From Tubiluchus corallicola (taxonomy: Eukaryota > Animalia > Priapulida): a DNA stretch of 64,000 nucleotides. This document shows, one piece after another, positions 1-46,923 of the stretch. The position numbers were made by a program, and so were the translations under genes. Location of the stretch: positions 186,001 to 250,000 of the forward strand of contig JAQGDQ010000140.1 in the NCBI GenBank assembly GCA_030141605.1, in the 5' to 3' direction. The notes under the pieces were generated by a model, which was not told the DNA's origin, did not search any database, and was given only the letters and a program-made list of their open reading frames with translations. The stretch's first letter is position 1. Every line of letters starts with the position of its first letter.

Positions 1-613
1 CACCAAATTCAACTGCCAGACCAGCAGAAAATGCATTTCACCTTGTAAAGCATATAGTCTGCAAAATATGACCACTTAGTTACAAAGGAATGACTGTACG
101 ACCATTACGACCGTTAGTGAGCTAGAATTTTTTTTTGTACATTTCAACCCAAGATGGTCAGCAGGCACTCAAGCTGCATGATGAACATATACCAAGGAAA
201 ATAGGTGTGCCATAAATAATTTGATCTAGTGATAGTCCTGTCTGCTGACATTTCTAAACAAGTGGCATAGTTGTTGAGTTTATAGGAAAGAATGTTCTCG
301 CAAAGATTTTCACATATAAGAGGCCCGAGCAAAAACCTAAATTTATGAGCACCGCTTTACATCTAGAAATGTCCAGGGTCAGAAACAGCTGCAAAGTGAG
401 TACTGCAAGCAACTTGATTTAGTAAGGATCAATGAAAATGGATTCTGAGAGCAATGGTAAGTCAAAGAGACCAACAGAAAGGTTTTCCTACATTGTCGTG
501 TGGCAACGGTTTTGCTATATTTAATACTTCTCGGATCCGAACACACGCTGACACAAATCAAATGTAAGACTTCTCTCCGACATAATAACACCTGTATAGC
601 AGAGCACATAGTA

Positions 614-14385: not shown

Positions 14386-14591
14386 CTTGTTTCCAATCTT
14401 GCACAGGTATTCCGCTTTTGCAAGCCAAGCATCTCTCACTTCAGACTCGCCTAGATTTTCCTCAGCATCCTTAATGACATCATCAAGTCTGGTCAATTCA
14501 GTTTTATTTTCCTCCTTGAGTTTGTTAAGCAGTGCTGTGTCAACTTGCCATTTCAGGTCCTTGCACAGTTCTTCGTAAAATACGGACATTG
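14386..14591 (-). CDS. PSMD6: Rpn7 exon 2
   Basis: ttttag|...|gtgtgt; 206 nt; [28 protein letters not shown]. Confidence 0.96.
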
Positions 14592-22145: not shown

Positions 22146-23147
22146 TCACGAATTATGCAGTGGCTTGTGCCTGCTTAACCCGCCAATTTGTGTGAAACTC
22201 TTATGACATACGTCACACTTGTAAGGTCGTTCACCCGTGTGAATCCTCATGTGGATTTTTAAAGAACCAGACTGTGAGAAACATTTCCCACACACCTTAC
22301 ACTCGAATGGTCTCTCACCAGTATGCGTTCGCTGGTGCATTTTTAGACTTGCAAGGCTGGAGAATGCTCTTCTACACCACTCGCACACAAACACAGTCTG
22401 TCGATTGTCCCTCCCGCCAAGCTTTGGTTTTCGTCCTCTTTTAACGACCATCCTAGTCAGCTGCGGTGTCTTGAAGGTGGACATGTGTGCCTCAGAATAG
22501 TGATCCCTTATATTCAGAATTTCATTCTTGTCTGACTGTGGTCTTCGTCCTCTTTTAATAACCGGTCTTGCCAGATGGAAAGCTTCGGAAGATGGAAGTC
22601 GTGTCTCAGAACAGCCATGAGCCAGATTTACAGCTTCGCTTTCATGAGATGAAATTTCACTGAATGGTTGGCCAATTCTAAGCGATGCATCAGCATCATC
22701 CAATACAATGCACTCCATTTCATTGTCAACAACTGGTTTTTGTTCTACCTGTTCATCTGAGCTTTCGTTTGCATCTTGATTTTTGTTGGGAAAGTCATAA
22801 TTGGTGTCAGAGTGTTGCAAACTATACTTTGAACTGAAAATGTCTTCACTATCAGCAACAGCAGGTTCACTATGTGCAGCTGGCTGAGCAGCGTCTTCGA
22901 TCAGGATAGGAGAAACATCACAACAAAATGATTTGCCAGTCAATGATGTCTTTTCAGTTTTGCAAACTGCGTCAGCATCATCAACACCTAAGCCGAATGG
23001 AGAATCATTGACACTGTTGATGTGCTGCCCCTCACTAACCAGTATTTTGCAATGCCAAGCTCTTGTATGAGCAAAAAAAATTTCCTCTGCGATAAAGCAT
23101 TCGGAGCAGGCAGTGCACTTGTAATAGAGAAGCAATTCAGATTCCAT
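22146..23147 (-). CDS. C2H2 zinc-finger protein (N-terminal C2H2-like finger, two AT-hook-like KRGRxP motifs, three C-terminal C2H2 fingers)
   Basis: 333-aa ORF with CTAC..HTRAWH, KRGRRP, KRGRKP and HTGERP-linked fingers; candidate acceptors at 23162/23170 and donor at 23517 for a 5'UTR intron. Confidence 0.9.
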   Translation of the reverse strand: MESELLLYYKCTACSECFIAEEIFFAHTRAWHCKILVSEGQHINSVNDSPFGLGVDDADAVCKTEKTSLTGKSFCCDVSPILIEDAAQPAAHSEPAVADSEDIFSSKYSLQHSDTNYDFPNKNQDANESSDEQVEQKPVVDNEMECIVLDDADASLRIGQPFSEISSHESEAVNLAHGCSETRLPSSEAFHLARPVIKRGRRPQSDKNEILNIRDHYSEAHMSTFKTPQLTRMVVKRGRKPKLGGRDNRQTVFVCEWCRRAFSSLASLKMHQRTHTGERPFECKVCGKCFSQSGSLKIHMRIHTGERPYKCDVCHKSFTQIGGLSRHKPLHNS

Positions 23148-25059
23148 GCTTTCACGTGAGTTCTACAATGCTGCAAAGTACAAATTAAATTACACCTTAA
23201 ATAACATATTATAGTAAGTTTTTGCTTAAGGGTGCCGTTTTGTTTAGTGTCATTTCGTTTTAACAATGCTGATCATTTGACAGCTTTTTTCACATTTTTA
23301 AGTAGTGAAGTAGTGTTGCCTGCAATAGTGTTTTACAAAGAAGCCCTATTACTAAAAATCTTCCCCTATTACTAGAAATAATTTGGCCTACTATAGAGGA
23401 TGATTCACTGTTGGCCATTTGCTAATTGATGGCACTTTCTCACATAGAAATTGAATTCCTCTGATAAAATTAACTCATGTTAAATTGTTGGGCTAACTAC
23501 TGCTGGGTTCAACTCACTTGCATTATGTTGTCTAAAAAACAAAAATAGAACTGCTTCTCAGATAGTGTAGTATCAAGTACTTGTGGCACATGTGGGCAAA
23601 AGAAAATTTTGGTGCCCTACCCTTTTATAAGGCTTTGATTATTTGTTTCGTAGGTGAAGCCACGTTTGTGCATGTTTTTGTGTCCCTGAGCCCCAATTTT
23701 CTTTTTGGACATAACGGGATAAAGACAAACAAATTTTTTCTAAGAATCACCCTGAGTTCGATTTGCAGTAGGCCTGTTGCAAATGACCAGAATAACTCTT
23801 CTATGTGTTCGTCTAGGGATATTACTCATAAGACGACAGTCGCTAAACATTCAGCTCCAGTATTAAAACGTGCAAAGATCATGAAAGATACAAAACACTA
23901 CGGGTTTTCAATAAAATTATTACAATCGGCATTAAGAGAATATAATGCCACTGTTACTCCCAAAATTATCGATCTGCCAAGCCACGTGCTACCCAACAAA
24001 TGCTGTCAAAGTAACAGCATCAACTTTTTTCTAGGGTGTATCCTGCATAGTAATTAAGTCAGCTACGATCTCTGACTAAGCAGTTTTGCTGTAGTTTGAA
24101 AACTTTTTTAATTCCTAATTAATTGGCAATAAACTCTAGAAGAATTATGCGCCTCTCACTCCTGCATCTAGGGACGATTGTGCCCTGCTATACCGAAGTA
24201 TTAAACAGAAATGCAGAAACATTCTGCATGAAGCTTTTAAAATACTGATGCTAGACTTGGATTTTTTTGCGAAAATAACCCAGACAGAAAGCGAGGTTCA
24301 AAAAGTCTAATGTTGTTAATGCTTTAGTGTGTTGTAAAGATGTTTTGGCAGAAAAACGAGAGTCTATGTAACTAACACTAAGATTTTTTCTAAAAAACAA
24401 AAACAAAAACGGAAAAAATGGCACTAGGGAAATAATCAGAAAAAGATACATGTAAGAAAAAAAAACCCGTGTTCATTTGCCAGTTTTTCGTATAACTGAT
24501 TGCTACAGAAATATAATGGTGGTTTACGATCTTAGGCGCAATTTAATTTTGATTTGAATTTCCACTGCCACATTTCTTGCACATTTTACTGATTTAGATC
24601 ACATTCACTTATTTTACTTCTAATCTAATTTATCGTTTAATTTATACTTTTTAAAATTCATAATAGCCTATATGCATAGAAGTAAACAAAAGTACTAGGA
24701 TTAGTGTAAGTTTAAGCTCTATCTTTTCAAAATTCCTATTATAGTATTACTATAGTATAGTATTAATTATCTTTTTCCAAAACTAAACTAAACACAACAA
24801 TAAATATACACACACACATATACAGGCAATAAAAAATCGCCGCTTTGTATTGAGGAATAGTTTCTTGCTGGTTAGAATGGATTTATGCTGGATAAAACCA
24901 TGTATTCCTTGCTCTTTTTAATTTTTAATATTGATTTAACACTTTTCGATTTTTCCTCAACAAATATTATGGAAAATCTTAAAAAGTCTTATTTCCGTTT
25001 AATTCAGTCCCAATTTATTTACAGGTAACACACATGTACGGGATTCGTTCCTTCTAGCT

Positions 25060-25377: not shown

Positions 25378-28300
25378 TTCTAGCTCCATCACGAATTAAT
25401 ATTAAAATCAAATAAAAAATAAAAATGCATCATAATAAGCAGGATGGCAACAGTGAAAACATTGTGAGGACGGCAATGATGATGGTGAATTGATGATTAC
25501 AGTAATATGTTGAGAATTATAATGATGACAATGATAATGACAATGGTGACACCATTGACAATAATAAATTTAATAATTTTTAAGAGCAATTATAATGGTG
25601 ACAATAATGATTGTAATGGGTGACAATGACGATATATGACACGCAACCAAGACAAAGGGAACTTAGACAAACAAGAGGCATGAGCTCGAGCTACTTGGTT
25701 AGGCAACGGTTAACCAAGATATTTGAATGTTTAAAGTGTTGAACTAAACAACTATACGATATATATACATGCATCATGATGATCATGGCAATGACAATAT
25801 ATGATTATAATGGTTATGCTAATAAGAAGAACAATGATGACGGCCAATTTAACATTAGGATAACATTACGATAATAATGATATCATAATAATTATTACGG
25901 TAAGTTCATAATCATAATTACTTTTTTCTATTTCGTTAATTTTTCCATCTCTTCCACACTTTGTTTCTAAAATCAACTTTTGTTTCCTCAGCTTCTGCAA
26001 TCCATTTCAGGGTATACTTCTTAGTGAAACAGTTTTTAATAACAATTCTTCTCACGTTCACTACGTATTAAATTTTCTAATTGGGTTAATGGAGTTTTAG
26101 CTTAAGTTTAGAATATTTTTCAAACAATGTTTTCCCCCAACTCAGTATTCTGTATCAGAACTACTTTACTGCAAAGGTAAGCCTGCATAACTTGCGAAAA
26201 AATCCATAAGAGTGCTAAAATTGAATATCTCTTCTGTTCTGAAATATTGTAATGTTGCCTTTCTTTTCGTACACTTGCTAACTACATGTACCTTAAAATT
26301 GATTTGAAAATATCAGGAAGAAAATGTGTAAAGCTCGTTGGTAAGAACAATGAACATGTGATTCTTGACCATATTGTTTTGTGGAATGAGAATGATTTTA
26401 ATGTTAAAGAAAATTGACAGATAACTACATGAAGAATTTGTTTCTCCCACAAAAAGTAAGCCTTCAAGAACAAATTGTTTAAACTTTCATTTGTTCCCAC
26501 TTCAAAGCATTCAAGCTTCAACACTTTTCTATTTTTTAAATTTCTTTTAATTGTTAACGTTTAGATTTATATGTACAGTTGAAGTTAATTACAGTTGCAA
26601 ACTTGTTATGCTAATTATAATCTGGTGCAAAGCATGGTGGAAAATTTTATGTAATATATGACCAATAAACTGTCTGACTCTACATGTGTAAGGCATTAAT
26701 ATTACTGTAGAGAGCAACTCCTACAACTGGACTTCGCGAAGTGAATGTAAGAGGCCTTCGCATCAAATAAAATTAGTAGCTCGTCAAGATTAATTTCTTT
26801 GCGTGTGAACATAATGCAAGTTGATATTTTCGAGTTTTCATGTTTATTTCTGTGATAATTTGTTTAATTTCATTCTCATCAAATAATAATTTAATAATGT
26901 CATAGTTTAGCAGTTTACCACAACTTAAAAATTACAACTTTCAGAGTTTCATTACAGCACTGTGATTTTTTATATTCAAGTAGTGAAATACAGTTATGAT
27001 ACATTATGTACAATACACTACAATCTGATGCTGCAATAACACAACAACATTTGATTTACAGCAAAAAATATAAAAAAACAATACAACATATGCATTTTAC
27101 ATCAAACTAACATTATTAATGAGAAAAAAGCAAAAAATTACTACTGCATAGTTTCGTTTAAGAATTGTTTACTTTTCAGAATTTCAGTTTTAAATCACTT
27201 ATTGTAACTATACTGGATGTTCCAAAAGAAACAGTGCTGTAAAAATATAATAAACTTAATCTGGAGTTCCGCTAATGGGACTTTGTATGGTGTAATACTG
27301 ATATATGTTTGCATAGCTAGCATTAAAGTTTGTTAGTGCACTGTGCACTATTTCTTTTAGAACACCCTGTACAAACTCCATTTTCAAATTACATCTATAT
27401 TTGCAACTTTGAATATGAGTAAAATTTATTATAATTATGAAACTGCTAAGAATGGTCATAGATCCCAGATATTAGCATTCACAGTGATATTGTTTATAGC
27501 AAACAAAGGTAAATGAAAATGTACGTATGCTTACACATCTAGTACACAGAAGTGATGAGTTCAGATATGAGTTCAAATCAAAGAATGATCTTACAACGCA
27601 CAGATCCTGCAGACAGACGCCAAACTCAAAATAATGTGCAATCTCAGCGGTGCCCATTTTTATCTTTAAATTAACATCTAATTGTTATATTACTGACAAT
27701 GACAGCAATACTTGATAATGAAATGTCTTTACACAATTTTTGCTGTAAATAAAACGCTGCAAAAAGCGACCAACGTCCAGATTCAACTTGAAATACACGT
27801 AGTACATCTTTGCAGGCTTTAAGTTTTAACGAAATTATTGTAATGCACTAAAATCCAGTATTTCATTAGTAAAAATACAAAAGTGTGTAGTATAATGCAC
27901 ATCCAAAGGTGCAATAATAATCAATGTTCCATAATTTTTTATATATAATTCATCACTGAAATAAATCCACACCGCATGGCATTAATCATTATCTACTAGA
28001 AATGCTATAACAAAATTCACTTTATTAACATTATTTTAACCACTGCTTTAACTATTACACAGTTTTGCTGTTTCACAATAATTTCTACTTTTAATTAATG
28101 CTGTAACAGATTCTAGTTAAACTCATACTATGTCTGTACAGATTTTGGCATCATGCCAAAAAACAAATTACAATATCCTACACGTACACACCCTTCTACA
28201 TTTCATTTTGCATCTATTCTCAGAGCAAAGAAAAAGTTGCAAATCCAGGAAAATTATCACAGGACATACATGATATTATAACTCATAATCAAAGCTCTAA

Positions 28301-28730
28301 GTTAACAACTTTAAACATTTAAAATGCTCGTTGATTGTCAATAATATAAGTAAATAAAATGCAATACTTCAGAATAGCTGGGTGCAGACGGCTATTGAAA
28401 AATGGGAGGCTCGTCAAAGAACAAGCAAACTTTGTTTGGGGTGTTTAGGCACATTAACGGGAACGTTCATTTTCAATTCAGTATCATAAATCATGAAATT
28501 ATTTCAGATGTTGTTGTGTACGCATCATAAAAATATTGGAAACTGAAATGTGATTAACAAACAATGTAAAATATAACGATGTGATTAACAAACATGCACA
28601 TGCAAAACATAATGAATAAACTTAATTATGTTACACAATTCTAATTCAGCACAAATTTTGAACGAGAAAAAGAACCGGTTTCTGTGTGCCTTGACACCAA
28701 TATCAAGTTATCAGTTATTATCATTAATTA

Positions 28731-28969
28731 GTTAGATTATGACTGTGATTGCCAGAGTGTTTATAAACCATTGTGGTTTACTTTTCAGCAATTATTACTA
28801 ATCGCAGGTAATACTTCGGAGAAAGGAGATGCTGGAAAATTGTGGACAAGTCAGGACTTTTCAGCATAACCATTCTTTCTCCAACTCATTACCCACAATG
28901 GGTAATAAATGTTAAAAATTAAACAGCAATGGTCTATAAACACTCTGGCAATCACAGTCATAATCTAAC
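28731..28969. mobile_element. MITE with ~50-bp TIRs
   Basis: GTTAGATTATGACTGTGATTGCCAGAGTGTTTATA... and its reverse complement at 28920-28969; TA on both sides. Confidence 0.8.
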
Positions 28970-30428
28970 TAAATAAAGATATCGCTAGTAGCCAGGTAAC
29001 TTGAAAAAAGTGTTGTTGTCAGATCATCCTTGTCAAGTTCATAGCCTAACTTATATAAGCAATATGCGTTCTTATGCTCATACACCATAGTTATTGCTAG
29101 CCTATTCAAAAAAGTATAGAGAGACAAGTGAATGATGTCTTACTATCAAATTAATTGTGGGGAAATGCCTTTTTTAATTTTAAGGTCTATTGTAACCAAG
29201 CAGCACCATTAATTACTGGCCCACGATTTTAACAAATTTATAAATACATATACGGAATAAAATTTGTCATAAAAACAATCAAACCAGGGAAATTACCCCT
29301 CAAAATTAAGAAATTACAGAATTATATTATCGACTGAATTGTGGTCTAGTTTCAAAACTTGCAAAAAATGAGCAATTATTTTACATTCACAATTGAGACT
29401 ATATGATCTTAAGCTCATAGTACAAGTTACAAAATTTGATGACATTGCCTGGTGGTCAAGTTAAATGTATTAATGTATTAGAGTAATTTATTCGAAGCAC
29501 CATAGTGCTATGCACATAAAATTTTTTCACAAGTTTATATCAATGCCATCACACATACGAATATTGAACATGCCTAAGTGAAGTGATCGTATTTAACATG
29601 TATCCTATGATTTTGACTGACATAAGTTACCTAACCAGTAGAAACCCATTTTTTTAAAAAAACTACTAATTATGTCCATCGCTAACTGCAATGTCATAGC
29701 AAACAGTATTTCATTCTAAGAAATATCATTTATAGTCACCACTACATCTCATTATAAATTTAATCATGTGTACATCATATACTCTATTTATAAAATTCAA
29801 TACATTTCGTTCTACAGAGCTGTACATGCATTAACGTAATCATTTACAATTATAAAATTATCAATATCCTTTTACAGAATCAATTATAAAAGCTGATATC
29901 CTTGCAAAATAACCTAGTGTTCTGTAACATAATTATCTTGTTTTACAAGTTGTCTCTTTTCCATACTTAAGCTAAAGCTATTAACAATAGCGCAGAGATT
30001 ACGCCAATTGCGTTAAATTCACATTGTACAGGAATATACGTTATAAATGAGGACAGTAATTTTAAATTCACACACATGATCAGATTCAAGTTCTGGGAAA
30101 CAGAACTGTAGACACTTGCTGCTAACACTTTGTCATCATACAGCACTACTTTACTTAGTATTATCAAGCTAACTGCATGTCTCTGATGCTTTTTTTTGCT
30201 TGTACTCCCAACAACTTGTCTTATACCATATTACAATAAAGAACAAGACTAACCAAAGAGCATTTGTTATAAAACTCTGCAATACACATTTTTCCAAGAA
30301 GTTGCTCCATAGACAAGAAAATAAGAAATAAAAAATGGGAGTTTCTATACGCAGAAAGTTAGCAAGAGGCTTGCACAAGCAGGTCTGTACATTGTTCCTA
30401 ATCTGTTATTACAATGGCAGCAACAGGT

Positions 30429-32142
30429 TTATATGGTAAAATAAGGAAAATGATAATCAGGTGGAAATTGTGGCTGAAATTCCATGATTTGTGGTCTGTA
30501 GTCCGATGTCGGAAGTTGCGGCCGCAGATCAGGCCTGAATTCTGGCCGCAGATCAGGCCGAAAGTCCGGACGAATCTCAGCATGCGGAAACTGAGCCCTG
30601 ATTAAGCCAGGGTGTGGACCATGCTGTACCAGATTGGAGTGAGTCAAGTGTGGATGGGCTGGGGGTGGATGTGGATGAGACTCTGAATGTGGAGGTCGTG
30701 GTGGATGTGAAGGAGATTGTGTATGTGGAGGTAGAGCTGGAGCTGACGGTACTTGTGGCAACTGTGCTTTCAGCTCATATTGGGGCAATGCTGCTTCTAA
30801 TTGAGGTGGATGCTGTTTCTGTTCTAACTGGGGTTGACGGGGTTGAGGCGCTCGACGTGGCTTAACATCTGGTGTGCTATTAGCATGCGATTTCTCATGT
30901 TTTCTCATTTTGTCTTGCCGTGCAAATGCTAAACCACAAATACTGCAATTGTATGGCTTAAGACCAGTGTGTGTTAATGCATGTCTTCTCAAGTCACTTG
31001 ATGTCAGAAAAGCTTTTTCACATTTATCACATTTATGAGGTTTTTCGCCTGCATGATTTCTCATGTGTTTACTCAAACCGCTGGACGTTGCAAAAAGACC
31101 TCCACAAAGCTTGCATAAATACGGCTTTTCGCCAGTATGAACTCGTTTGTGCACTTTCAGAGATCCGGACTGTGTGAATCGATTACCACACTCGTCACAA
31201 ACGTACGGTTTCTCACCCGTGTGAGTTCTTTTGTGCACTATCAGCTTAGCTGCTATTTTGAAGTGAATACCGCACTCGTCGCACTGAAAATCTTTTTCTA
31301 AGGAATGGCTCCGTTTATGGCGTGCTAGCTTATCAGCTCGGGAGAATGTTGCCTTGCACACAGAGCAAGTGTATGGCTTCTCTTCACTGTGCGATCTTTT
31401 GTGAATTAGTAACTTATAGCGATTGTAATATTCCTTACTGCAAAGGTCACACTTAAATACTTCTTGAGGTTCTAGACCAGGAGGAGGGTGCCGAATTTGG
31501 ACGTGAGTTTTAAGGCTACTGTACGTGTAAAATATCTGATCACATTGCCTGCAATTAAATGGCTTCGACTCTGAATGAGTTTCAATGTGTTGTTTCAGTG
31601 CTAGTTTTCCCTTCATCTGCTCATCACATATCACACATTTGTACTCACTCATGTCATGGGAAGTTAACACGTGATGGTTAAACTCACTGGCAAGTAAAAA
31701 GGAAGAGTCGCATTGATCGCAATTAAACGGTTTGTCTCCGACATGGATATAATTATGACGCTGCAGTGCAATATTGTTTGGAAACACCAAGTCACACAGC
31801 TCACATTTAAACTGTGTGTGTTCGGGGTGCTTATCACTATAGTGTGAATTCAGGCACTTAAATGTGAAAAAGCTTTCATTGCACAACCTACAATCGTACG
31901 GTTTTTCGCCCGGGTGAATCTTAGCAATGTGACTGTTGAGCTTGTCACGACGTGCAAACGCAGCCTCACACTTAGTGCAAGCAAACGGTTTTTCTCCCGT
32001 GTGAGTTCTGATGTGCAGTTTGAGTGCATAGCTGCGTACAAACACGGCATCACACCAATCACATGTAAATGCTTTCTCTCCAGTTTTCTGTAAATCTTGG
32101 ACAATTTCCTCCAAGCCTATAGAAGCTGCAGCTGAAAGATGA
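30429..32142 (-). CDS. alternative terminal exon C of the multi-cassette zinc-finger gene: 14 C2H2 fingers plus Pro/His/Gln-rich tail
   Basis: No in-frame ATG at the start (ORF track uses TTG); acceptor ttttgttttcag| at 32142, phase 2, in frame with exon 40926-41018; predicted isoform 672 aa. Confidence 0.88.
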
Positions 32143-32524
32143 CTGAAAACAAAATAATTAGCGTGAATTTTCGAAAGAAATTAAAAACGAACAATTGGTA
32201 GCATTTAGTAATATTAATATGGTTGCTCTGCAACTGCGTGAAGAAAACTGTAGAAACTACTGTGCCATAACATACATAAAATCATCACTAGACGATAATA
32301 AAGTTTGAACTGGTTGTTTGCTATCTCACAATAGTTCGGCACTGATGCAAACGAGAGCAAACTTGCCATTTTTATCAAGACTGTATAATTCATATCACAA
32401 GATGCAATAGAGACAAAAGATAATATGTGATCACACAACACTCATGGAAGAAAATATCTCGCTTTTGGCTGTGCACATCCCATTATCAGGTGATCCAGAT
32501 GTAACGCAAAATACTATAGCAGAA

Positions 32525-32568
32525 TACATGTGATTGGTGCTGTGCCGTGTTTGGTACAAAGCTCTGCA
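32525..32568 (-). promoter_or_regulatory. intronic element complementary to the 5' end of cassette exons C and A
   Basis: Plus-strand TACATGTGATTGGTG (32525-32539) and TGCCGTGTTT (32543-32552) are exact reverse complements of 32053-32067 and 32040-32049. Confidence 0.6.
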
Positions 32569-32931
32569 ATAAGAAAAATGACTGGTACCAGTCATCATTA
32601 CATTAGTAAGTAGATCTTAATGTAAACAGTTGAATTTAACAACATTTCTAACTGCACTGGCACACAACTAAAGTAATATTACACATATTTTGATATAAAT
32701 CTAGTATTACTGTCAGTAACTGAAACAACATTCTTGTCAAGTAAACACACAGTGAATTACTATATAACCTTTACATAGTAACTAAGTCTAACTTTTACAC
32801 TGCATAGGAACAGTTAAATTTAAAAGCACCAAAGCAGCACAAAAGAAATGGGGAAGACTAATTGTTCCACACATTTTATTGTAACAGTGGCAGCTGCTAA
32901 ATTATTGCTTCTTGAACTAAACTGTAATGAT

Positions 32932-34561
32932 TTATATAGTGAAATAAGGAAAATGCGGATGGTAATCTGGAGGAAGTTGGGACTGCAATTCCAAGACTTG
33001 TGGTCTGTAGTCCGATGTTGGAACTTGTGGACGCATGTCCGGGCGGAGTTCGTGATGAGGGCGGATTTCTACTTGTTGGAACTGAGGCCTGATCATTTCG
33101 GCTTGTGAAATGTGTGGCGCAAATTCAGGAGGAGGAAAAGTAGGGTGTGGATGCATGTGAGCGGGCGCTGGCGGATGTGCAGGCTGTGACACCGGTGCTT
33201 TTATTTCGAACATTTGTGACTTCACCTCAAATTGAGGCGTACGTGAAGTGTGGCTTCGAGGAGCACGAGATTTAACCTCTGGGGTGCCGTTAACGTGAGA
33301 TTTTTCGTGCTTTCTCATTTTATCTTGCCGAGCAAATGCCAAACCACAGATACTGCAATTGTATGGCTTAAGACCTGTATGTGTTAATGCATGTCTTCTT
33401 AAGTCACTTGATGTAAGAAAAGCCTTCTCACACTTATCACATTTGTGTGGTTTTTCTCCAGCGTGATTTCTCATGTGTTTACTCAAGCCACTGGAAGTTG
33501 CAAAAAGACCCCCACAAAGCTTACACAAATACGGTTTTTCGCCTGTATGAACCCTTTTGTGCACCTTCAAAGATCCAGACTGAGTGAATCGATTACCGCA
33601 CAAGTCACAAACGTACGGTTTCTCACCAGTGTGCGTTCTCCTGTGCACAATCAATTTAGCTGCAATTTTAAAGCGAAGTCCGCAGTCTTCGCACTGGTAA
33701 TCTTTGACAGAAGAGTGAGTTTTCTTATGACGGGCTAGCTTGTCACTACGAGCGAATCTTGCAGAGCATTCATCACAAGGATAGGGCCTTTCACCGGTGT
33801 GAGAACGTTGGTGCACCAGCAACTTGTACCGATGAAAATACTCTTTGTTGCACAGTTCACACTTGTACACTTCTTGAGGTTCTTGACCAGGAGGTGGATG
33901 ACGAAGCTGCACATGCGTCTTGAGGTTACTGTACGTGTAATATACATCCTCAGTGTCAACACAGTGCTTACACTTGAAAGGTTTCTCGTCAGCATGAGTA
34001 TCTATGTGCTGCCGCATGGATACTTTACCGCTCAACTGTTCATCACATATTACACACTTAAACTGGCTTAAATCGTGTGCATTCTTTACATGAGCATTAT
34101 ACTTAGACAGTCTCACAAAGGAGGCATCGCATTGGTCACAGTTATATGGCCTACTCCCACTATGCGTATAACTGTGACGTTGCAAAGCCGTTTTACTCGG
34201 AAACCCTTGTTCGCACAAGTCACATTTGTACAACGCATGCTCAGGATGTGTAGCATTATGATGTATGTTCAGGGCTTTAAACGTGTAAAATGCTTCGTTA
34301 CAAAACTTGCACTCGTACGGTTTCTCGCCTGGATGAACCTTAGTAATGTGATTGTTGAGTTTGTCACGACGAGCAAATGTTGCATCGCATTTGCTACAAG
34401 CGTGCGGTTTTTCTCCTGTGTGAGTTCTGATGTGCAGCTTTAGTGCATAGCTGCGTGAAAACACGGCATCGCAAAAATCACACGAAAATGTCTCTTCACC
34501 GGTTTTCTGCAAATCCTGTACAATTTCCTCCAATCCAAAAGCAGCTGCGGCTGAAAGAGGA
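32932..34561 (-). CDS. alternative terminal exon B: 14 C2H2 fingers plus Pro-rich tail
   Basis: Acceptor ttcctttcag| at 34561, phase 2, (S)PLSAAAAFGLEEIVQDLQKTGE; predicted isoform 644 aa; the ORF extension to 34704 is intronic. Confidence 0.88.
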
Positions 34562-34959
34562 CTGAAAGGAACAAAAACTCTGTAACTAAGTGGTTTTACA
34601 ATACGTTCTCTGAAGGAGCTACACCCAAAAATTAAAAAAATATGGCGAACAAATAAAATATTTTTGCTGTTTTTGTTGGCAAAACCACGTTGGTTAGCAA
34701 TCAACTATCTCCATTACTGTCCTCTAATGTATCAACAAATCTCTGAAAATTAAAGTGGCAGTAAACATTTAAGACGTTAAATACAAAACGAGCAAATTTT
34801 ATGATTTGTGACATTCGATCAATCTTTTATCAGCACATAACAATCAAATACCTATGTAATATTTGTACAGGAGGTCAATTAGCTTATGTTAATCTACAAG
34901 GACATCAACGACAATGTCAACTTGGATTTTTTTGTTCACAAAAGAGTGAACACAACATA

Positions 34960-34993
34960 CAGAAAACCGGAGTTGTGCGATGCCGTGTTTGTA
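34960..34993 (-). promoter_or_regulatory. intronic element complementary to the 5' end of cassette exons B and A/C
   Basis: CAGAAAACCGG (34960-34970) and TGCGATGCCGTGTTT (34976-34990) are exact reverse complements of 34499-34509 and 34459-34473, in nested order. Confidence 0.6.
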
Positions 34994-35609
34994 ATCCGCT
35001 TTGTAGCCAGTTTGCGGAACCACATAATAAACAAGCCATCAAAAAAATCAGAACGGACAAATGTACACGTCACTAGCAGTGTCCAGTTTGAAATTTATTA
35101 ACTAAGATGCACCTTACACTATCAGTCACCCAAACAACATTCATAATTCTAGTTATCATCAAAGTCATCTTCAAATCAACTAATATTGCAATTTGAACAA
35201 ATTTCGATGATTAGCAAAGACTTCTAAAATCATTTTCATACTTAATTCAATTGCTTAAAAGAACAGAGAAATAGTTACTTAAAAATGGAAATATAAATTA
35301 CCTAATGGACTAGACTAGAATGGCTGAAAAATTTTTCAGTTTACTATTGTTAATGAATTTAAAAGAATTCCATAATTTGTGCAACCAAAAAATCTTTATG
35401 CACTAACAAAGATAAGCTGGCTGAAACAATATGCATGAGGCGCAACCAAATTAATTGGCCCTCTTAAGTAATTATATTCGACAAATTATGTGTGAAAAGC
35501 TCATTATTATATGAAAGAAAGCTATTAAATGTACAAAATTTATACAGCAATAAAATCCATCTCTGAATTACAATGCACTGTTCTTACAATAACTTAGTAA
35601 ATATACAAT

Positions 35610-37248
35610 TTAAATTGTAAAATAAGGGAAATGTGGGTGGTAATCTGGGGGAAGTTGGGGTTGTAACTCCATAATTTGGGGTCTGTAGTCTGATGGTTGA
35701 ATCTGAGGAGGCCTAAGATCCGGTCGGAGCTCATGGGGGTGGCGGAGATCAGGGCGGATCTCCGGCTGAGTAAACTGAGGTCTGATCATTTCTGGCTGTG
35801 AGTTTTGCTGCTGCATAAGCTCTGGGTGTGAAAGGTGTGGATGAGAAAGAGGGTGAGGTGGAGGTGGCGGAAGTTGCTGCGGATGTGATACTTGTGGTTG
35901 TTTGATTTCAAACTGGGGTTTGACCTCAAAGCGAGGAGGGCGCGGAGCAAGGTTACGAGGAGCACGAGGTTTAAAGTCTGGTCCGCCATTGATGTGTGAC
36001 TTCTCGTGTTTTCTCATTTTGTCTTGTCGTGCAAATGCTAAACCACAGTGACTGCATTTAAAAGGCTTAAGACCTGTATGTGTTAATGCATGCCTTCTTA
36101 AATCACTCGACGTTAGAAAAGCTTTTTCACATTTATCACATTTGTGAGGTTTTTCTCCCGCGTGATTTCTCATGTGTTTTCCTAAACCACTAGAAGTTGC
36201 AAAAAGACCTCCGCAAAGCTTACACAAATATGGTTTTTCTCCAGTGTGAGTTCTCTTGTGAACTTTAAGCGATCCGGACTGTGTGAATCTATTACCGCAC
36301 AGGTCGCACACAAATGGTTTCTCGCCTGTGTGAGTTCTTTTGTGTACGATTAACCTAGCTCCCACCTTGAACCTAATTCCGCATTCGTCGCATTGAAAAT
36401 CCTTCTCAGAGGAGTGCATTTTCTTGTGCGAAGCCAGTTTATCACTGCGAGCAAAGCTAGAAGGGCATTCGTCACAATGGTACGGCTTCTCACCTGTGTG
36501 AGAACGCTGATGTACCAATAGCTTGTAGCGATTGTAATATTCCTTGTTGCAAAGCTCGCATCTAAACACCTCCTGAGGTGTCTGTCCGGGAGGGGGGTGC
36601 CGTACCTGGACGTGAGTTTTAAGACTGCTGTAAGTGTAAAATATGTCTTCACAGTCTTTACATTTAAACGGCTTGCTGTCCGCATGGGTTTCAACATGCT
36701 GCTTCAGTGCTAATTTGCCTTTAAGTTGCTCGTTGCAAATTATACAGGTGAATTGATTCGTTTCGTGTGCTAACTTATGTGCATTGAATTTTGAGGCCTG
36801 TGCAAATGAGCTATCACACAGATCACAATTAAATGGTTTTTCACCAGTGTGATGAAGGCTATGACGCTGCAGGGCATTTTTGTTAGGAAATCCTTGATCG
36901 CAAGAGTCACATTTGTAAAGAGAATGTTCCGGATGCTTATCATTGTGGTGCGCATTCAGGCACCTAAATGTATAAAACGTTTCGTCGCAAAACTTGCAAT
37001 CGTATGGCTTCTCTCCCGGATGAACCTTAGAAATGTGATTGTTCAGTTTATCACGACGAGCAAACGCAGCCTCACACTTAGTGCAAGCAAACGGTTTTTC
37101 TCCTGTGTGAGTTCTGATGTGCAGTTTGAGTGCATAGCTGCGTACAAACACGGCATCACACCAATCACATGTAAATGCTTTCTCTCCAGTTTTCTGTAAA
37201 TCTTGGACAATTTCCTCCAAGCCTATAGCAGCTGCAGCTGAAAGATGA
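35610..37248 (-). CDS. alternative terminal exon A: 14 C2H2 fingers plus Pro/Gln-rich tail
   Basis: Acceptor ttttcgtttcag| at 37248, phase 2, (S)HLSAAAAIGLEEIVQDLQKTGE; predicted isoform 647 aa. Confidence 0.9.
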
Positions 37249-37997
37249 CTGAAACGAAAATAATCAATAAGAAAAATCTAAAATGCAGCGAAAATCTAAT
37301 GTCACCACCTGAATCCTAGGAACTTGAAAAATCCTGCCTGAAAAGTATGTAGGACACTAAAAAGCACATTGGTTTATTATTTTTTATACTCTTAATTAAT
37401 TCTAGAAATGATTTTACTATCCAAGGGAAAAATTGAATTTGATATACTGCTTAATCAACTGGTGCTTTTCTCTTTAAACATATCAGACCACCGGATGAAA
37501 GCATTTCCAAAAAATGTAGCTAGCAATGACTGATAAATTGCTAGTGAAAATTCATGATAGTTTAAATAAGTACTAAGGTATTAAGTTTTTATACTTGGAC
37601 GACAACATGCTAACTTTAAGCAGAAAATTGCAAAATATTCGAAAAAAATGCACTGGAAAAAATGCATCAAAAATCATTCATTGCCAAAGTATGAATATAA
37701 AAGTATGTTTTGATAAAAATACAAGCAGCAGTGTTTGTAAAACGAGTGAAATGCTTGTAAAATTGCTTGCTGCACATAGTAAAAGCATTAGCCTTGCTAA
37801 AATAAATTGGAAAAGGATTCAGTGCAAAATTGTTAAATATTGTCTGCACTCCGACAATTACTGAAAAAGTTGGTCTTTATTTTCATACAATTTTGCTCAT
37901 AAATAAAAAACATGAAACAATAATTAATACATCACACGTGCCGTATTGATTGCCAAAAAACCAGTACATTTTTAAAATAGGTAGACTAAGCCCAAAG

Positions 37998-38320
37998 TAC
38001 TGATTTTGGATGTTAAAAACCTTCAAAGTTACATGAGGTGGCGATATGCTGCAGATTTTGATGGTCGACCTTAGGGTGCTTGTCCAAACGTTCTTGCAGA
38101 AAAGAAAGGTTTTGCTTTGATTTGCTTGGTTTTTGCACTCCTTGTAAAAAAAACCAGAAAGATGAGCATACACGATGAAGGGTGCAAAAGCCAGGCAAAG
38201 CAAAACCTTGCTTTTCTGCCAGAGTGTTTGGACAAGCACTCTAAGTTCAACAAGCAAGATCTGCAGAACAATGCTACTTCACATAACTTTGGAGACTCTT
38301 TTACCCATCCAAAATCAGTA
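37998..38320. mobile_element. foldback element / long imperfect palindrome
   Basis: Arms about 37998-38143 and 38178-38320 are reverse complements (e.g. GTGCTTGTCCAAAC / GTTTGGACAAGCAC), loop about 35 nt. Confidence 0.8.
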
Positions 38321-38477
38321 AATTATTGTTTTCAAATAGGCATCTTTGCTTTAGCTTTAAGTAACTAATCCCATAAAAATTGCACAATGTTACTCATTTT
38401 GAGGAAAAAACGTGAAAATTTAATCACTCGGTATTTTCATCCCTTCATCACGGAAAATCAGTAAGAATACGTTTGCA

Positions 38478-38593
38478 TCTATATATTAATTCTCTTGGTA
38501 TGGGCTTAATATACATATAAGATTCGAGGCTACAGCTCGGACGACGGCACCATTTGTGGAGATCTATACATCAAACGAAAGATCTCGATCTAG
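38478..38593 (+). mobile_element. short Helitron-like element
   Basis: A|TC ... CTAG|T termini; similar to 3700-3820. Confidence 0.65.
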
Positions 38594-39094
38594 TATATAA
38601 ATAAAAAGGGTTGTACGTTTATCAATGGCCAATACAAAAAGCATACTAAATCAAGATCTTACTCTTATTTAGAATTCTGTGATGAAAATGCGGTGCAAAA
38701 CACTATATGCAAAACGTTAAAAATGATGTGGATATCTTGATGCATTAAAAACGTTTGAAAAAAGTTTTTTCATTGACTCACTGACTCTGTTCTAATTTCT
38801 GGTCACTGATTAAGCATTTGAAGAACAATCAGATCAATTCAGGTTATCACAAAACCTAATTTCAGGTAGATTCTAATAAAAAAATCTGTGTTCAACACTC
38901 AATATGGAAAATCTCAGACACGAACAAGGTGCTTAGCCATAACTTAAGGACAGTGACAAAGTCAAAGCGCATCAAGTGATAGGAAACTCACAATACGTCA
39001 CACATAAATAAAGTGTTTATTTATTTAATTCACAGTTTGATACAGCTCCTCTACAAATATAATCTTCGAATATAACTTTTTATCGCACGTTTAC

Positions 39095-39951
39095 TAGGTA
39101 TGTCACGAAACTCCGACAGAACAGGAGAAATCGAATCCGAATTGAAGCATTAATTCAATTCGATCCGTCTGCGTTACCTTAGGTCTGATCGGATTCGGCA
39201 CAAACTTTTAGAAAATATCCAGTTTAGCCTCGGTTGCAAAGACGATTCAGTGGCGGTTTATTATAAAAGCATTATATATCTCATTTATCTTTAAACTTTT
39301 TTTGCAAAATCCAGAAATCGCTGCCTTTTTTTGATAATTTTGTCTTATTGAAACATGTCAATGGCGCCATGTTCACTTTCAGCATGTGTCAAACTTATGA
39401 AATCCCCTGCAAAAGCATGCACGCATTACGGTTTTTACTGCTAGTTGCAAAAAACGCTAAGATTTTTTGTGCTACTTTGACAGAATGTGGTTTTCGCTAA
39501 CTAAAGCTTAAATGAACATAGTTTTTTTGTCATCCACATTACACAGACTCGGTAAAAACAAGGAATTTTTTGACTAACTGATCATTTTATATTGTTAGTC
39601 ACCAGCAGAAAAAATCTGTTACTGAATAATTAGATCATCTATATTCTTTATTATTGCAGAATTACTGTCACACGTGCTGCTCAGACAGGTCACCTGTAAT
39701 CTTTGTGAAAAACACTGCTGTCTTACCAATCTGCCTTAGTTTAGTTGGAAACTGGGTAGATTCAAATAAGATTCAGCTCAAAGAACTATCAGAAAAACTG
39801 AGATTACAATTCGATTCGGTTGTGAAAATTATTTTAAACTGAGATTTGGATTCAATCAGGATTCGAAAATTATTTTAAACTGGCTTTCAGAATCAAAAAT
39901 TATCATAAAATGAGATCCAGATTCTGTAATTTCAGATTCGTGACATGCTTA
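39095..39951. mobile_element. hAT-like non-autonomous element with GATTC/GAATC subterminal repeats
   Basis: TAGGTATGTCACGAA ... TTCGTGACATGCTTA imperfect TIRs; no clear TSD. Confidence 0.65.
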
Positions 39952-40925
39952 CCAAGCAACTTAAACTTGGTTGCACAAGCTTAGCTGAAAGCTTGGGAAC
40001 CTTTTTTAAATAAAAACCCCAAAAGAAAGTTAAAATACAGCAAAAATTCTGTAAAAATTAGAAATGTTAGCATGCATGATGTAAGGTACATGCAGTATAC
40101 TGTGCAAACTGTAAATGCAAAGAAAGCTGAAAGATTCATAATTATAACGACTGATGATTACAAATGAAATATTTAAGAATTTTTGTTATTTTGGCATATT
40201 AACGATTAGCAATGGCTGATTTTCTGCATTAAAGCATATACAATTTTTACCCATTCATATATGAAATTCCTTGAAAGATGCTAAGCAGATCTAAAAGAAT
40301 TTCAGTCTGAGCCCTGCTAATGACATCTCTGTTATTTGGTAGACCTGAAGAGACCCACAGAGCCACTGTTTTGCAGAAAAACCACACTGGCACTATACTG
40401 TTGAGGAAGGAATAAACATCCAAATAATGCTAAGGCACCTCTACTGGTTCAGTATCTTGTACAACAGAAGTTTACCTTCAAATGACAATGAGTAACAGTC
40501 CGGTCCCACCACAGACAATTGCCATTAATACGAGGCCCAGTCAAACTGCCATGATGTACTAGATTTTGGTTTGCAGTTCGATGAATCGTATGGAAAGTAA
40601 ATCTTATTTCACTACGAAATGGGCCTGCTTATTGAAGTAATCATAATAAATATAGCATTTTTAGTCATAATAACAAAACAAATTCCACAATTTTTTTGAG
40701 TTAGTTACACAGAAAAATGCAAGAGCCACATCAAAAACCTTTCATTGCTGTGTGTTGTAGCACATGGTACGCCACATTTTCTTGGTAGCAAGTACAGTTT
40801 AAAGCAAGGCGATTAGTCTATGAAATACAATATCAAATAAGCTGCAAAATAATCAAGTATGGTGCATGTTGTCACATGTTACCCTATGTCAAAATTTTGC
40901 GAACTCCACAGCAATTAATTTGTAC

Positions 40926-41018
40926 CTTAAAGAATTTGACGTCAGCGACCTTGGCTTCCTAGGTGCTCTCTTGCGTCGGCGGCCTAATGTCAAGGCTGGA
41001 AATTTCCTCTTGTGAAAC
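40926..41018 (-). CDS. shared exon 2 of the multi-cassette zinc-finger gene (basic, NLS-like)
   Basis: ttgttag|...AG|gtacaa; 93 nt, phase 2-2, FHKRKFPALTLGRRRKRAPRKPRSLTSNSL; open frame connects exon 1 to all three cassettes. Confidence 0.75.
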
Positions 41019-42596
41019 CTAACAAGATAAATAAAATTATAATAAATATTTATGTAGGATTTTTAAGTTAACATATTCACACATATCTTTCAAAGCTATT
41101 TTCAGATATACTAAAAAGATAGGCCAGCAACAAAAAAAGTTTTGCTTTTGTCTTACCTCATATGTTCAAAAAAGGAAATTTTTTTTAAAGCTTTGTAAAC
41201 GTTTAAGCTTGAATAGTGAAATATTTAAAATGAATAGTTGAAATATTTCCCACTAGCAGTAATGTTTTAAATTTTTCCAGCAGTAATGTTTTAAATTTTT
41301 CCAATGCACAATTTTTCACCACTTCTTTTTTAGTTTTACATACTAAAATATCGCATGATTATCAATTATTGTATAGTCTATTTTTTGCATCATAAAAGTA
41401 TATGTTCCGATAATTATGATATAAGCGGCAACACTACTCAGCCATTAATACACCAATTTGGCAGAAAATTTGATGCTTTCAACCTCCAATAAAATGAGCA
41501 TCATACAAGATGGCAACCCTGGCCATCTCTAAACTCTACTGGCTTTGTTTGTTCCACTCATTAATAATTCCTTATAGCTTAAAAAAATTAACTGCGACAC
41601 AGACAGTGTATGAAACAAAGCACCAGGTTATGCATTTGTGGGATACGTTTGTTTTCAACAGGTGCAGTGTGTATTTATACAAAGATATTTGATACTTTGT
41701 TATATATATATGACGTCTCTGGGAATGGTTAAATGGTTAACCGACCACAATTGAAAAAGTTTAAACAGTCTCAGCCCTAATAAAAACGTTTAATGCCTTT
41801 AACAGTCTCACAATGATTATTCATTTATTTCAGGAGCTGAATTATAATAAGCCTTAATTTTTAGGTAATATAATTATTTTTCTTCACGTGACATTTCAAC
41901 CTGTTCAGATCATAATTAAAACTCATGCATCTGTAAGAAATTACAGTTTGTACTCCATTTAAATTTCACTTCCTTTAAATTTTATTAAAGAACGTTTTTC
42001 TGTTTATAATTATTTTAACCTGTAATTATAAATTCATTATCTAGATAATGATCCAATACTGCTAGGCAATAGAATCGAAATATCAAAGATAAAAAAAATA
42101 TTTTCTTGTTATAATATTTATTAAACTTTGCACACCAAGTACTGCATGACATAAGTACTTACATAATGCACAAAATTTGGCAGTAAGTCATAAACTTAGA
42201 GCCTACAGTATGCCAACTGCAGCTACCATAAGCTCATTAAAATTATTTTGCATTTAGTCAGATATATTGCAGGATTGTGTAGTCAAAAATGTCAACATTT
42301 TATTGCTTAAAGTGAAAAAGAGTTCAGAATTTGCATCACATTTTATGTAACTTCTTGCAAATTTCCACAGGGTTCTCTGCAGAAACTTCCCGTTTGTGAT
42401 CGCGCACGGAAAAACATGGCGCATCTACTAAAATTTTTCCAATATTTTTGGCACGAGTTTCAGTTGAATGCAATTAGCTCGCGAACTGTTTTCTATACAG
42501 CTACATGCAACGAAACTACAGCAAACACAAATTTGTTCAACATTACCCTCATTTTCAAATAACCGATATTTTAAACACTTATTTCGTCATACTTAC

Positions 42597-42808
42597 TCGT
42601 CAAGAAGAACCTGTGCAGTCTCTTCGTCGGATTTAACGCCTAATCTTTGCTTAACCAACTGCCAGCGATGAAATTCCTTTCCCAGCGATTCTCTAAATCC
42701 TTTTGACTTGATAAAGTTGCGTTTCAATTGATCCAAACGTCGTTTCGACGGAAAATGTCTGTATCTTCGAATAATAGAAAAACCTCCTTTCTTCTTGATG
42801 CCAGCCAT
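42597..42808 (-). CDS. shared exon 1 of the multi-cassette zinc-finger gene; ZNF692/ZNF653-like N-terminal module
   Basis: AAAATGGCT start context; ...RESLGKEFHRWQLVKQRLGVKSDEETAQVLLD|gtaagt; 212 nt, phase 2. Confidence 0.82.
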
Positions 42809-43549
42809 TTTGACGGTTGACGTTCAAGATTCCGGTTAGAAATCTCACAGTAGGAACGCACCGCCAAAATGTCATCGAAGCAAACTGCAGCTATTATCTT
42901 ACAAGTATTTGTAGAATTAGTTATATTCACCGCCAAATAAAAACCAGTAAAAGCTACGTCCGCGCCCTTTTCGTATTTAATAAAATCAAACTACTTACAA
43001 CACTAAAACAAATTTTAATACTCCGAGTAAACGCCAGAAATTAGTAAAGTACGACAGTTCACTTCCAATGGCGCTCCGTATTTTTGTTGAGAGGATACGC
43101 CCTAATCACTCAATCAATGCAGAGCTTTGATCTCAAACTGCCTTCTCCAGTCTGCACCGGAGAGTGACGGAGTACACCATAAGCTTTGAACGTACGAGTA
43201 CAGATTCAGCCAACCTACAATGCCAGCAATCTGTCAAGACATGATTTTAAAGTTGTAAAAAGGAAAATTAATGTTGATGGTCAGATTCTAAAAAAGTTGC
43301 AGCATAGTAAGGAAGCAAAGTGTATAAGATAAAAATTTCGCACTATATTAAAAAGCTCCTAAAATGACAAAATTCACAACAAGTCTTGACATGATACTTA
43401 TAAAGTACAAAAATATATTATTTTTATGATTTTACTACAACTTTGGCAAAATCTTTCGCAAAATCTTCTGTCAGTTGCAGCTTAAAAGTTTATTAAATTT
43501 ACACATTTAAATAAAATATGTTGCACGTGCATTTGCACATCATAGCAAA

Positions 43550-44954: not shown

Positions 44955-45897
44955 TGAAAAATGATAAAAATGAAAATCAGAGATTAGCGCTTAGCGAGAA
45001 AACCTTAAGATAAGAAAATCCTCCATTACCTTACTATAAATGTATAAGATATGTTTAGTAGTCTTTATTACGCTCCTTTGAGCATTTTACTGAAAGAACC
45101 ATTAAATAATATTTTTATTAAGGTGACATAATTTCCGTATTACGTATCTAGGTTACGACCTATCAAATACGTTTAAAGATTTTTATAATTTATTTTAAAA
45201 ATCTAATTCATTGAAATTTTACGCTATTAGGCCCATATAGAGAGACAAATCCAAATTTATTTTCCCGTGACGCTAATGAAATGTATGGCAGCAGAAAATT
45301 TTTTTTAATATTTACGATGACGTAAAACCCTAAGGCGTCAGAATCACAGAAAGTTTTTCCTACTTTCCTCATAATATTTTAATTATTAGCACTGAGAGAT
45401 TTTTACTTAGCAACTTTTACGACAGCAAAAACGCATATGACATCAATAACCGTATTTGGGACACATCGTACTTCATTGGCTGACAACCTGTCACGTGATC
45501 ACTCATTCACAACTCTAGTTAGTGGTGCTCAGTGCTCACGCCACGGCACTAGACGGATAGGAAGCGCAGTATGGAGTGTGTGTAAGGTGCAGCCACGAGT
45601 TTACCTAACTTGCTTTTGATTTGAGACGTTCATTCTGAGTTTGGACTTTGCTATCGTACATTGTAATGACAAGCCACTGCTATGCATCGTTACTGCTAAA
45701 GCTACTAATTATTTTTATGTAGAAGGTTTCAAAGCTGAGCAAAACCGTGTGTTTTCTCCGGGAAATTTTTTTGCAATGTTCAAGGGTTTACGTGAGCAAA
45801 CTATTCAATTTTTGACATTTGGTCGAGATTGATGTTTCTGATACTAGACTCGTGGGTAGTCTAGGAGAGAACGTTTAAGAGCAGCGGAATAAGACAA

Positions 45898-46279
45898 ATG
45901 CCCGAACGAGTGGCTAGTCGCATAATGTCGGTTAGTGCAGAATGGTTACATGAACGGGTCATGAAGCATCGTGATGCGGAAATGCTGGTGGTGGACCTTC
46001 GGTGCCAAAAAGAGTTTTTGGAAGCTCACTTATCCGGCTCCATCAATATGGTTTTGCCCAGTTCAAGTTTAATGCTACGTCGCTTGGCGAAAGGTGCACT
46101 ACCGTTGTCATCATGCATACCATCAAACAAAAGTAGAAGGAAATGGGAGAATACAGTTAAGAAGAAACGACTGGTCGTTTTAATAGACAGCAATGACAGT
46201 CTTCCTTCAGCCGCTATCGACACAGTGCAGAATCGATTGTCACAAGACAACATTTCATGTACATCTGTCTATTTGTCAG
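45898..46279 (+). CDS. DUSP6: dual-specificity MAP kinase phosphatase (DUSP6/7/9, MKP-3 type), exon 1: rhodanese/CH2 domain with KIM
   Basis: LVVDLR..EF..AHLSGSIN, MLRRLAKG kinase-interaction motif; donor tcaG|gtaata; 382 nt, phase 1; DUSP6 vs DUSP7 vs DUSP9 cannot be resolved. Confidence 0.92.
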
Positions 46280-46491
46280 GTAATAGCAATTTATTATTTT
46301 TTAATTTTTCAGTGTGATTGTATTATTTTAAAAGCTAATATTATATTACAATTAAAATCTATCTTATAATTGCTAACTGTTTGATTACCTAAAGGGCTAA
46401 TGTGAAAACGTCATATGGTGAGCACAATAACTATGTGATCGGGCTACATAAGCCTATAATTAAACTTCAAGTTTCTTTTTAACTATTTCAG

Positions 46492-46923
46492 ATGGTTTTT
46501 CAAATTTCTTTGCCAAGTTCCCATCGCTTTGTTCTATGCCAGACCTTCGCTCATGTTCGGAAGAGGAAGTAAACGCAGATGAGGATGATGACTGTCAGGA
46601 GGACTCTACCATCTCTCCGATCATTGGCTTACAAAACTTGCGTATAGAACATAAGTCGCCAAATCCAGACGAGGATGAAACTCCGGACAGTTCGTGCGAG
46701 TTTCCTGTAGAGATACTTCCGTACCTGTATCTTGGGAATGCTAAGAATTCTCGTGATTTAGATACATTGAACAAACACAATATAAAGTACATACTCAACG
46801 TTACGCCAAACTTACCCAATGTATTTGAAGGGAACGGTTTAGTAAAGTACATGCAGATTCCGATCAATGACCATTGGTCACAGAATCTTTACGGATTCTT
46901 CCCAGAAGCTATCGAGTTTATTG
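46492..46923 (+). CDS. DUSP6: DUSP6/7/9-like exon 2: end of rhodanese domain and first half of the phosphatase domain
   Basis: tttcag|(D)[10 protein letters not shown]...[12 protein letters not shown]...[11 protein letters not shown]...[21 protein letters not shown]|gtgagt; the exon with VHCxAGxSRS was not found in the window. Confidence 0.94.

Follow-up and report, generated by a model that had tools for sequence, protein, structure and literature searches.

We analysed a zinc-finger gene of the priapulid Tubiluchus corallicola that lies on the minus strand of a 64,000-nucleotide stretch of contig JAQGDQ010000140.1 (GenBank assembly GCA_030141605.1, positions 186,001 to 250,000; hereafter the window), and in which two predicted 5' exons are followed by three tandem, homologous exons (A, B and C). 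We consider it on balance probable, by a modest measure, that competing RNA pairings at the first 110 coding bases of exon A decide which last exon is used. Two antisense arms, one in the interval before B and one in the interval before C, and a further element (D) in intron 1 are complementary to this region; the anatomy of the gene and the complementarity, position, partner preference and excess over chance of these elements were read directly from the DNA.

Antisense elements and their partner in exon A

All gene parts were read at the DNA level, and coordinates are positions in the whole window (Table 1). Exons A, B and C, whose protein identity to A is 75-77%, each run from a TTTCAG acceptor through 14 C2H2 fingers, as counted by pattern, and a Pro-rich tail to a stop, and are separated by intervals of 0.8-1.0 kb. 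Exon 1, with or without exon 2, can be joined to A, B or C through in-frame, stop-free phase-2 junctions to give about 645-673 codons. Exons 1 and 2 occur as a single copy in the window, and the first methionine of A, B and C is found at residue 277, 182 and 164, respectively, with none early in the exon, which argues that a single zinc-finger gene likely uses A, B and C as alternative last exons. The DNA thus holds tandem homologous alternative exons 3' of common exons, as do docking site-selector systems. The G+C content is about 30-35% in introns and 41-49% in exons, exon 2 standing at 49% amid introns of 30-34%.

A sequence-only reading had placed an antisense echo of each cassette's first finger region upstream of every acceptor. 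The pairings that it gave for C (15/15 and 10/10 nucleotides) and for B (15/15 and 11/11, nested) were recovered exactly, and those for A were also present (13 Watson-Crick pairs, two G-U pairs and one mismatch over 16 nucleotides, and 11/12) but did not rise above chance. This emerged from a shuffle control in which the best ungapped helix to the first 200 nucleotides of exon A was compared with 300 dinucleotide shuffles per interval: the real value was reached by 0/300 shuffles of the A-B interval, 3/300 of the B-C interval and 0/300 of intron 1, and by 159/300 of intron 2, which holds the claimed A arm, and 271/300 of the region after C. Arms therefore precede B and C only, and a second candidate before A (37484-37510, net -10.3) did not exceed background either. 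Among 5881 non-exon windows of 50 nucleotides on the transcribed strand, arm B ranked first (-59.0, z -8.5) and arm C second (-55.9, z -7.9) as partners of the exon start, the third-best window reaching -41.1. For comparison, we used 80 generic zinc-finger loci (32-45%) solely as a control; the 45 unrelated ones with at least 800 nucleotides upstream, several of them from the same hosts, gave -32.3 +/- 3.9 with a minimum of -38.8, against -34.8 for A, -51.1 for B and -58.5 for C. The arms are confined to the two inter-cassette intervals, downstream of candidate poly(A) signals at 35099 and 32880. We conclude that arms B and C are genuine and lie far beyond chance expectation.

Element D, which was absent from the sequence-only reading, was found by an all-against-all helix scan of the pre-mRNA (27000-43000, G-U pairs allowed). 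It pairs with exon A over 23 of 23 contiguous positions (17 Watson-Crick, 6 G-U; -42.5 kcal/mol), with exon C over 22/23 and with exon B over 19/23 in register, and only three short-range hairpins outscore the pairing of D with A in the scan. Its strength fell from -45.4 to -21.8 in an opposite-strand control, as expected if D works as RNA, and all six departures from Watson-Crick pairing are G-U on the transcribed strand, a property that is partly built in by a scan allowing G-U. The pairing starts at +8, and a weak extension over the acceptor AG of A is predicted.

These three elements converge on the same exon. When exon A was tiled against four intervals (27 tiles, intron 2 left out), 3 of the 108 cells reached -40 or below, and these were D, arm B and arm C, each against the first 120 nucleotides of exon A. 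Arm B pairs better with A and C than with its own exon (-60.1 versus -54.7), as the sequence-only reading had noticed, and the helices surpass its description, with 19 bp (18 Watson-Crick, 1 G-U) and 15 bp (14 Watson-Crick, 1 G-U). After opening costs, each of the three elements has its most favourable energy with exon A: D gave -14.7 with A, -10.5 with C and +0.9 with B; arm B gave -25.3 with A, -21.3 with B and -16.1 with C; and arm C gave -27.6 with A, -20.0 with C and -7.3 with B. The eight sites under arm B at which A and B differ agree with this preference, since arm B fits A only at four (one of them synonymous), both at three, neither at one and B only at none; at the three transition sites, the arm base pairs with both exons, through G-U with one of them. 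Both proposals of the sequence-only reading that concern the target fit the data, namely that the coding 5' end of exon A is the common partner of arms B and C and that the docking site lies in coding sequence (+44..+107), the latter by complementarity.

We regard as unlikely an arrangement in which each arm pairs only with its own exon and tunes its own acceptor, the match to exon A being a by-product of paralogy and gene conversion. In local folds the mean pair probability between arm and own exon is 0.93-1.0 for B and C (0.00-0.01 for the claimed A arm), arm B is perfectly Watson-Crick with B over 15 and 11 nucleotides, the loops are only about 450 nucleotides, and a precedent exists in Drosophila Nmnat, where a box in the upstream intron and a second box within a terminal exon pair around the acceptor of that exon, lowering use of the proximal acceptor (PMC2724269). 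Yet the net energies favour A, arm B fits A only at four of the eight discriminating sites and B only at none, and repression of the distal exons with an armless proximal exon would hinder any use of B and C.

On exon A, arms B and C overlap at +88..+104; both need these bases and are therefore mutually exclusive there, which gives overlapping selectors on one common element, exclusive also in the folding model. The common element is complementary to elements upstream of B and C, and to none above chance before A. In a reduced folding construct made of short slices joined by artificial linkers, arm B paired with A as soon as it was made, and the D:A pairing formed throughout. The state that leaves B free (arm B with A, arm C with C) came to -371.4 kcal/mol and the state that leaves C free (arm B with B, arm C with A) to -372.1, the A-free state being about 10 kcal worse at -362.4 kcal/mol. 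Across six settings that varied linker, flank and temperature, A-free was always the least favourable state, and the B-free and C-free states lay 0.6-6.3 kcal apart; loop-length terms would favour local pairs by about 2 kcal. Just 3' of the paired region, exon A/C contains a local 15-bp hairpin (37129-37143/37064-37078, -25.1), which could help to keep this hub accessible.

A proposed switch between last exons and the readings weighed against it

From this arrangement we infer the splicing, the pairing in vivo and the direction of the effect as follows. Exon A would be the kinetic default that needs no arm, provided that its splicing and its cleavage at the poly(A) signal of isoform A precede transcription of the A-B interval. 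Failing that, arm B, which is transcribed about 430 nucleotides ahead of the target in its own exon, would pair with exon A +44..+106, covering the 5' end of A, looping out the body of A together with its poly(A) signal and setting acceptor B about 390 nucleotides from the stem. Arm C could take the same exon A bases, upon which arm B would fall back on the start of exon B and only C would be free, such that two arms facing three near-identical exon starts would leave one start uncovered per state. While intron 1 is present, D would pair beside the arms at +8..+30 and further weaken acceptor A. A more ambitious version, which we put forward as a tentative possibility, is a self-contained switch in which the duplicated coding 5' ends would serve as docking sites, each arm would alternate between exon A and the exon that it precedes, exactly one start would be free in every stable state, gene conversion between the starts would keep the pairings matched, whole 14-finger arrays would be swapped on one N-terminus, and the intron-1 element would tie the choice to the order of intron removal.

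The age of the copies bears on whether such elements could persist by chance. Between copies, fourfold sites differ at 0.50-0.60 (Jukes-Cantor distance 0.8-1.2, about one change per site) and the upstream introns are unalignable; yet arm B retains 34/34 pairs in its two core helices with A, which makes neutral survival of the arms unlikely, judging from these comparisons. That the arms and D arose as small templated insertions in inverted orientation and have no function is a reading that we consider very improbable. Short inverted repeats of similar strength do occur elsewhere in the window; against this, three separate elements match the same 110 nucleotides of a 1.64-kb exon, their flanks have diverged beyond alignment, and the non-Watson-Crick positions of D are, with the reservation given above, all G-U on the transcribed strand. 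An inverted copy that was old and neutral would have decayed, and three separate recent insertions from the same 110 nucleotides are improbable.

Exons A and C share a nearly letter-for-letter tract that covers the paired region. Over codons 1-62, they differ at 1/26 fourfold sites, against 0.60 over the rest of the exon, where they are as distant as A and B, and we take the tract to be the likely product of gene conversion. An assembly artefact is less likely, because a sequencing run that behaves as DNA (X1, possibly the source sample) shows both A-type and C-type letters at the end of the tract (31925-31944; depth 7.9 of 14.6).

Several observations weigh against a competition centred on exon A. 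Synonymous change between A and B is not reduced in the paired region, at 6/17 against 3/12 and 6/22 to either side, and no orthologous locus was found by protein searches or among metagenome and prokaryote-genome loci: the best 120 of 487 matches to residues 1-250 of exon A were all generic (25-40% identity), the metagenome locus search gave 0/260, and the prokaryote genomes gave two irrelevant loci. No splice junction was found in X1 or in a second run, X2, which is RNA only by guess, in contigs of the region 28500-36200, and uncovered parts prove nothing. Isolated inverted matches over long range, at -36 or stronger, also occur between introns elsewhere in the window, and a segment upstream of the start codon of the predicted PSMD6 gene (17850-17869) is antisense at 19/20 positions to coding exon 2 of that gene (14477-14496). 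The folding construct consists of short slices and artificial linkers, and the arms start at +44, leaving acceptor A itself uncovered. Finally, the pairings of arm C with A and with C are identical in sequence and the local loop is much shorter, so that cross-pairing rests on small energy gaps and timing.

The remaining readings give the duplexes other tasks. ADAR uses such intronic partner sequences for editing, and the intron-exon duplexes of 30-34 bp, together with the A that arm C leaves opposite C at +93 (an Asp codon), could suggest that the arm and D duplexes let ADAR recode the first finger region. We find this slightly more improbable still than neutral remnants: the paired stretch does not reach the recognition helix of finger 1, the A at +93 faces a U in arm B and follows a G, a context disfavoured for ADAR editing, and there is no arm before A. 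Equally improbable in our judgement is a separate job for D, with the arms acting independently, whereby D would mask the out-of-frame AGs at +11, +17 and +26 of exon A/C or bridge exon 1 to A/C with skipping of exon 2. D covers exactly the +8..+30 segment that contains these three AGs, its pairing with A loops out exon 2, all joins remain in frame without exon 2, and looped-out exons reportedly show lower inclusion (PMC8052449). Conversely, D is gone once intron 1 is removed and could act only if that intron persists, and it has no net pairing with B (+0.9) although B keeps two of the AGs. The least credible of the readings is that B and C come from separate transcripts whose arms pair in trans with an exon 1-2-A pre-mRNA as an aid to trans-splicing. 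Trans-splicing is familiar from lola and mod(mdg4). The same pairings would work between molecules, and for chelicerate sDscam RNA-pairing-aided trans-splicing is reported (PMC9258826); here, all parts lie in cis, in order and on one strand, and the 0.8-1.0 kb intervals yielded no promoter evidence.

Other features of the gene and its neighbourhood

Table 1. Features of the zinc-finger gene by window position; offsets with a plus sign are positions in exon A.
Feature	Position	Strand	Remarks
Predicted coding exon 1	42597..42808	-	ATG at 42808; phase-2 donor GA/GTAAGT
Element D	42213..42235	-	intron 1
Predicted exon 2	40926..41018	-	93 nt, phase 2 to phase 2, K/R-rich peptide
Claimed arm A, two pieces	37652..37739	-	present, at chance level
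Terminal exon A (likely)	35610..37248	-	acceptor TTTCAG/T through stop; 14 C2H2 fingers and Pro/Gln-rich tail
A=C tract	37062..37248	-	near letter-for-letter equal to exon C 31956-32142
D target, exon A +8..+30	37219..37241	-	three out-of-frame AGs
Coding hub, exon A +44..+107	37142..37205	-	complementary to arm B (+44..65, +88..106) and arm C (+76..107)
U/G-rich element, copy 1	35118..35142	-	25 nt; about 150-175 nt upstream of arm
AATAAA, candidate poly(A) signal of isoform A	35094..35099	-	predicted; within the loop that pairing of arm B with the start of exon A would close
Arm B	34951..34993	-	390-430 nt upstream of acceptor B
Terminal exon B (likely)	32932..34561	-	14 fingers; own arm-B target 34459-34509
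AATAAA, candidate poly(A) signal of isoform B	32875..32880	-	predicted
U/G-rich element, copy 2	32709..32733	-	25 nt; about 150-175 nt upstream of arm
Arm C	32525..32557	-	383-415 nt upstream of acceptor C
Terminal exon C (likely)	30429..32142	-	14 fingers; own arm-C target 32036-32067

Each arm is preceded by a copy of a U/G-rich element; the two copies agree at 21/25 positions, the next best match in the window reaching 17/25. No RNA pairing partner was found for this element, which is possibly a protein-binding or 3'-end element. In the 3' flank of exon C, positions 30263-30284 match the 5' edge of arm C (32550-32571) at 19/22 positions (E about 0.05) and may mark a decayed arm position after the last cassette. 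An Rfam search returned six sub-threshold microRNA (miRNA) matches, all on two large hairpins and none on the arms or D.

The peptide encoded by exon 1 contains a short helical motif, G-x4-RW-x2-(L/V)-x3-L-x3-SDEE-x-A-x2-LL, that recurs in proteins of shark and catfish and in unnamed ones, often twice per protein. The motif had no match in Pfam, PDB sequences or Foldseek, and the exon-1 peptide gave 0/39 candidates in a protein search and 11 weak matches with HMMER. A ribbon-helix-helix identity was dropped because the predicted model, two helices with a predicted local distance difference test (pLDDT) of 71.6 and a predicted template modelling score (pTM) of 0.36, gave it no support. The motif may resemble the N-terminus of ZNF692/ZNF653.

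The sequences in run X2 correspond to the tails of B and C only, at 91-93% identity, and their listed differences from the window fall at third codon positions in 7/8 and 10/12 cases, a weak hint that both B and C are maintained in a relative. A zinc-finger open reading frame further downstream (22146-23162, minus strand) was rejected as a fourth last exon because one of the two nearby AGs is in phase 1, where a stop lies in frame, and the other in phase 0; this small C2H2 reading frame is probably a separate gene.

In the neighbourhood, an exon of the proteasome gene shares 97% identity with an unnamed transcript and 74% with Priapulus, the nearest named among 38 matches. The predicted PSMD6 (Rpn7) gene contains a near-perfect intron-intron inverted match (11267-11290/11953-11976) and a second one, 13028-13054/14629-14655 (26 Watson-Crick pairs of 27, -47.2), that flanks its predicted exons 2 and 3. 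Two large inverted repeats have 107-nucleotide arms: one in intron 2 (38021-38294, 79%), which resembles a miniature inverted-repeat transposable element (MITE) or a hairpin and carries weak sub-threshold miRNA-family matches, and one at 28719-28981 (83%), whose very high depth in X1 identifies it as a multicopy element. Positions 45865-46931 of the plus strand hold exons of a divergently transcribed gene that, from its translation, may encode a MAP kinase phosphatase.

Relation to known systems

A common N-terminal part joined to alternative zinc-finger 3' exons is familiar from lola and mod(mdg4), which have a BTB domain, many exons and trans-splicing; unlike these, the gene described here has no Pfam domain in its N-terminus and carries three 14-finger exons in cis. 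Among the closest known systems is the balancer of Drosophila Dscam1 exon 6, in which the pairing Ubs6.1-Dbs6.40 represses the first exon and favours distal ones, against a first-come-first-served order (PMC8791459). Here, too, the first variable exon is complementary to elements in the introns that precede the distal exons. Unlike the balancer, the hub here lies entirely in coding sequence (+44..+107), the exons are terminal, measure 1.6 kb and have candidate poly(A) signals of their own, and the strongest helices included no separate intronic docking site-selector pair; as for coverage of the acceptor, the arms begin at +44 and D at +8, with the weak predicted extension over the AG. D in turn resembles the pancrustacean Dscam1 Ubs1-exonic Dbs pairing, in which an intron element upstream of the cluster pairs with exonic sequence (PMC12962786), with the difference that Ubs1 lies in the intron adjoining the cluster and has middle and distal targets, whereas D sits in the next intron upstream, beyond exon 2, and favours exon A.

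Competing pairings also select 3' cassettes in Drosophila PGRP-LC, CG42235 and pip (PMC6191721), which share with our gene tandem 3' cassettes, one common element facing elements before each, and coupling to 3'-end formation. The docking sites of these genes are described as intronic and not copied into the cassettes (PMC6191721), whereas here the docking sequence is coding and copied into each rival exon, and each arm therefore has two possible partners. We found no intronic docking site outside the variable exons: the hub belongs to the coding part of exon A, the first variable exon, and D, though intronic, is complementary to exons, not arms. Nmnat resembles our gene in an intron-exon pairing inside a terminal exon and differs in having one stem, two non-homologous acceptors and no competing arms (PMC2724269). 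Duplication of one arm of an intronic stem has been proposed as an origin of such systems (PMC6071210; PMC9013439). In the mostly open-access literature, supplements aside, we found neither a report on this gene nor one on zinc-finger last exons controlled by RNA pairing, and the Dscam1 supplements may hold wholly exonic upstream elements. Competing pairing itself is already known; what appears to be new is a hub that is wholly coding and copied into rival exons.

Competing pairings over duplicated exons have been proven in a handful of mostly insect genes, and the arrangement described here is compact, fitting three exons, two arms and a single upstream element into 12.4 kb. If our interpretation is correct, a transcription-factor case in another invertebrate lineage would support the repeated origin of such systems with exon duplication (PMC6071210). 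Moreover, both pairing partners would lie in the duplicated unit, one of them protein-coding, and codon choice and gene conversion would thereby enter into the control of splicing, which goes beyond what that model covers (PMC6071210).

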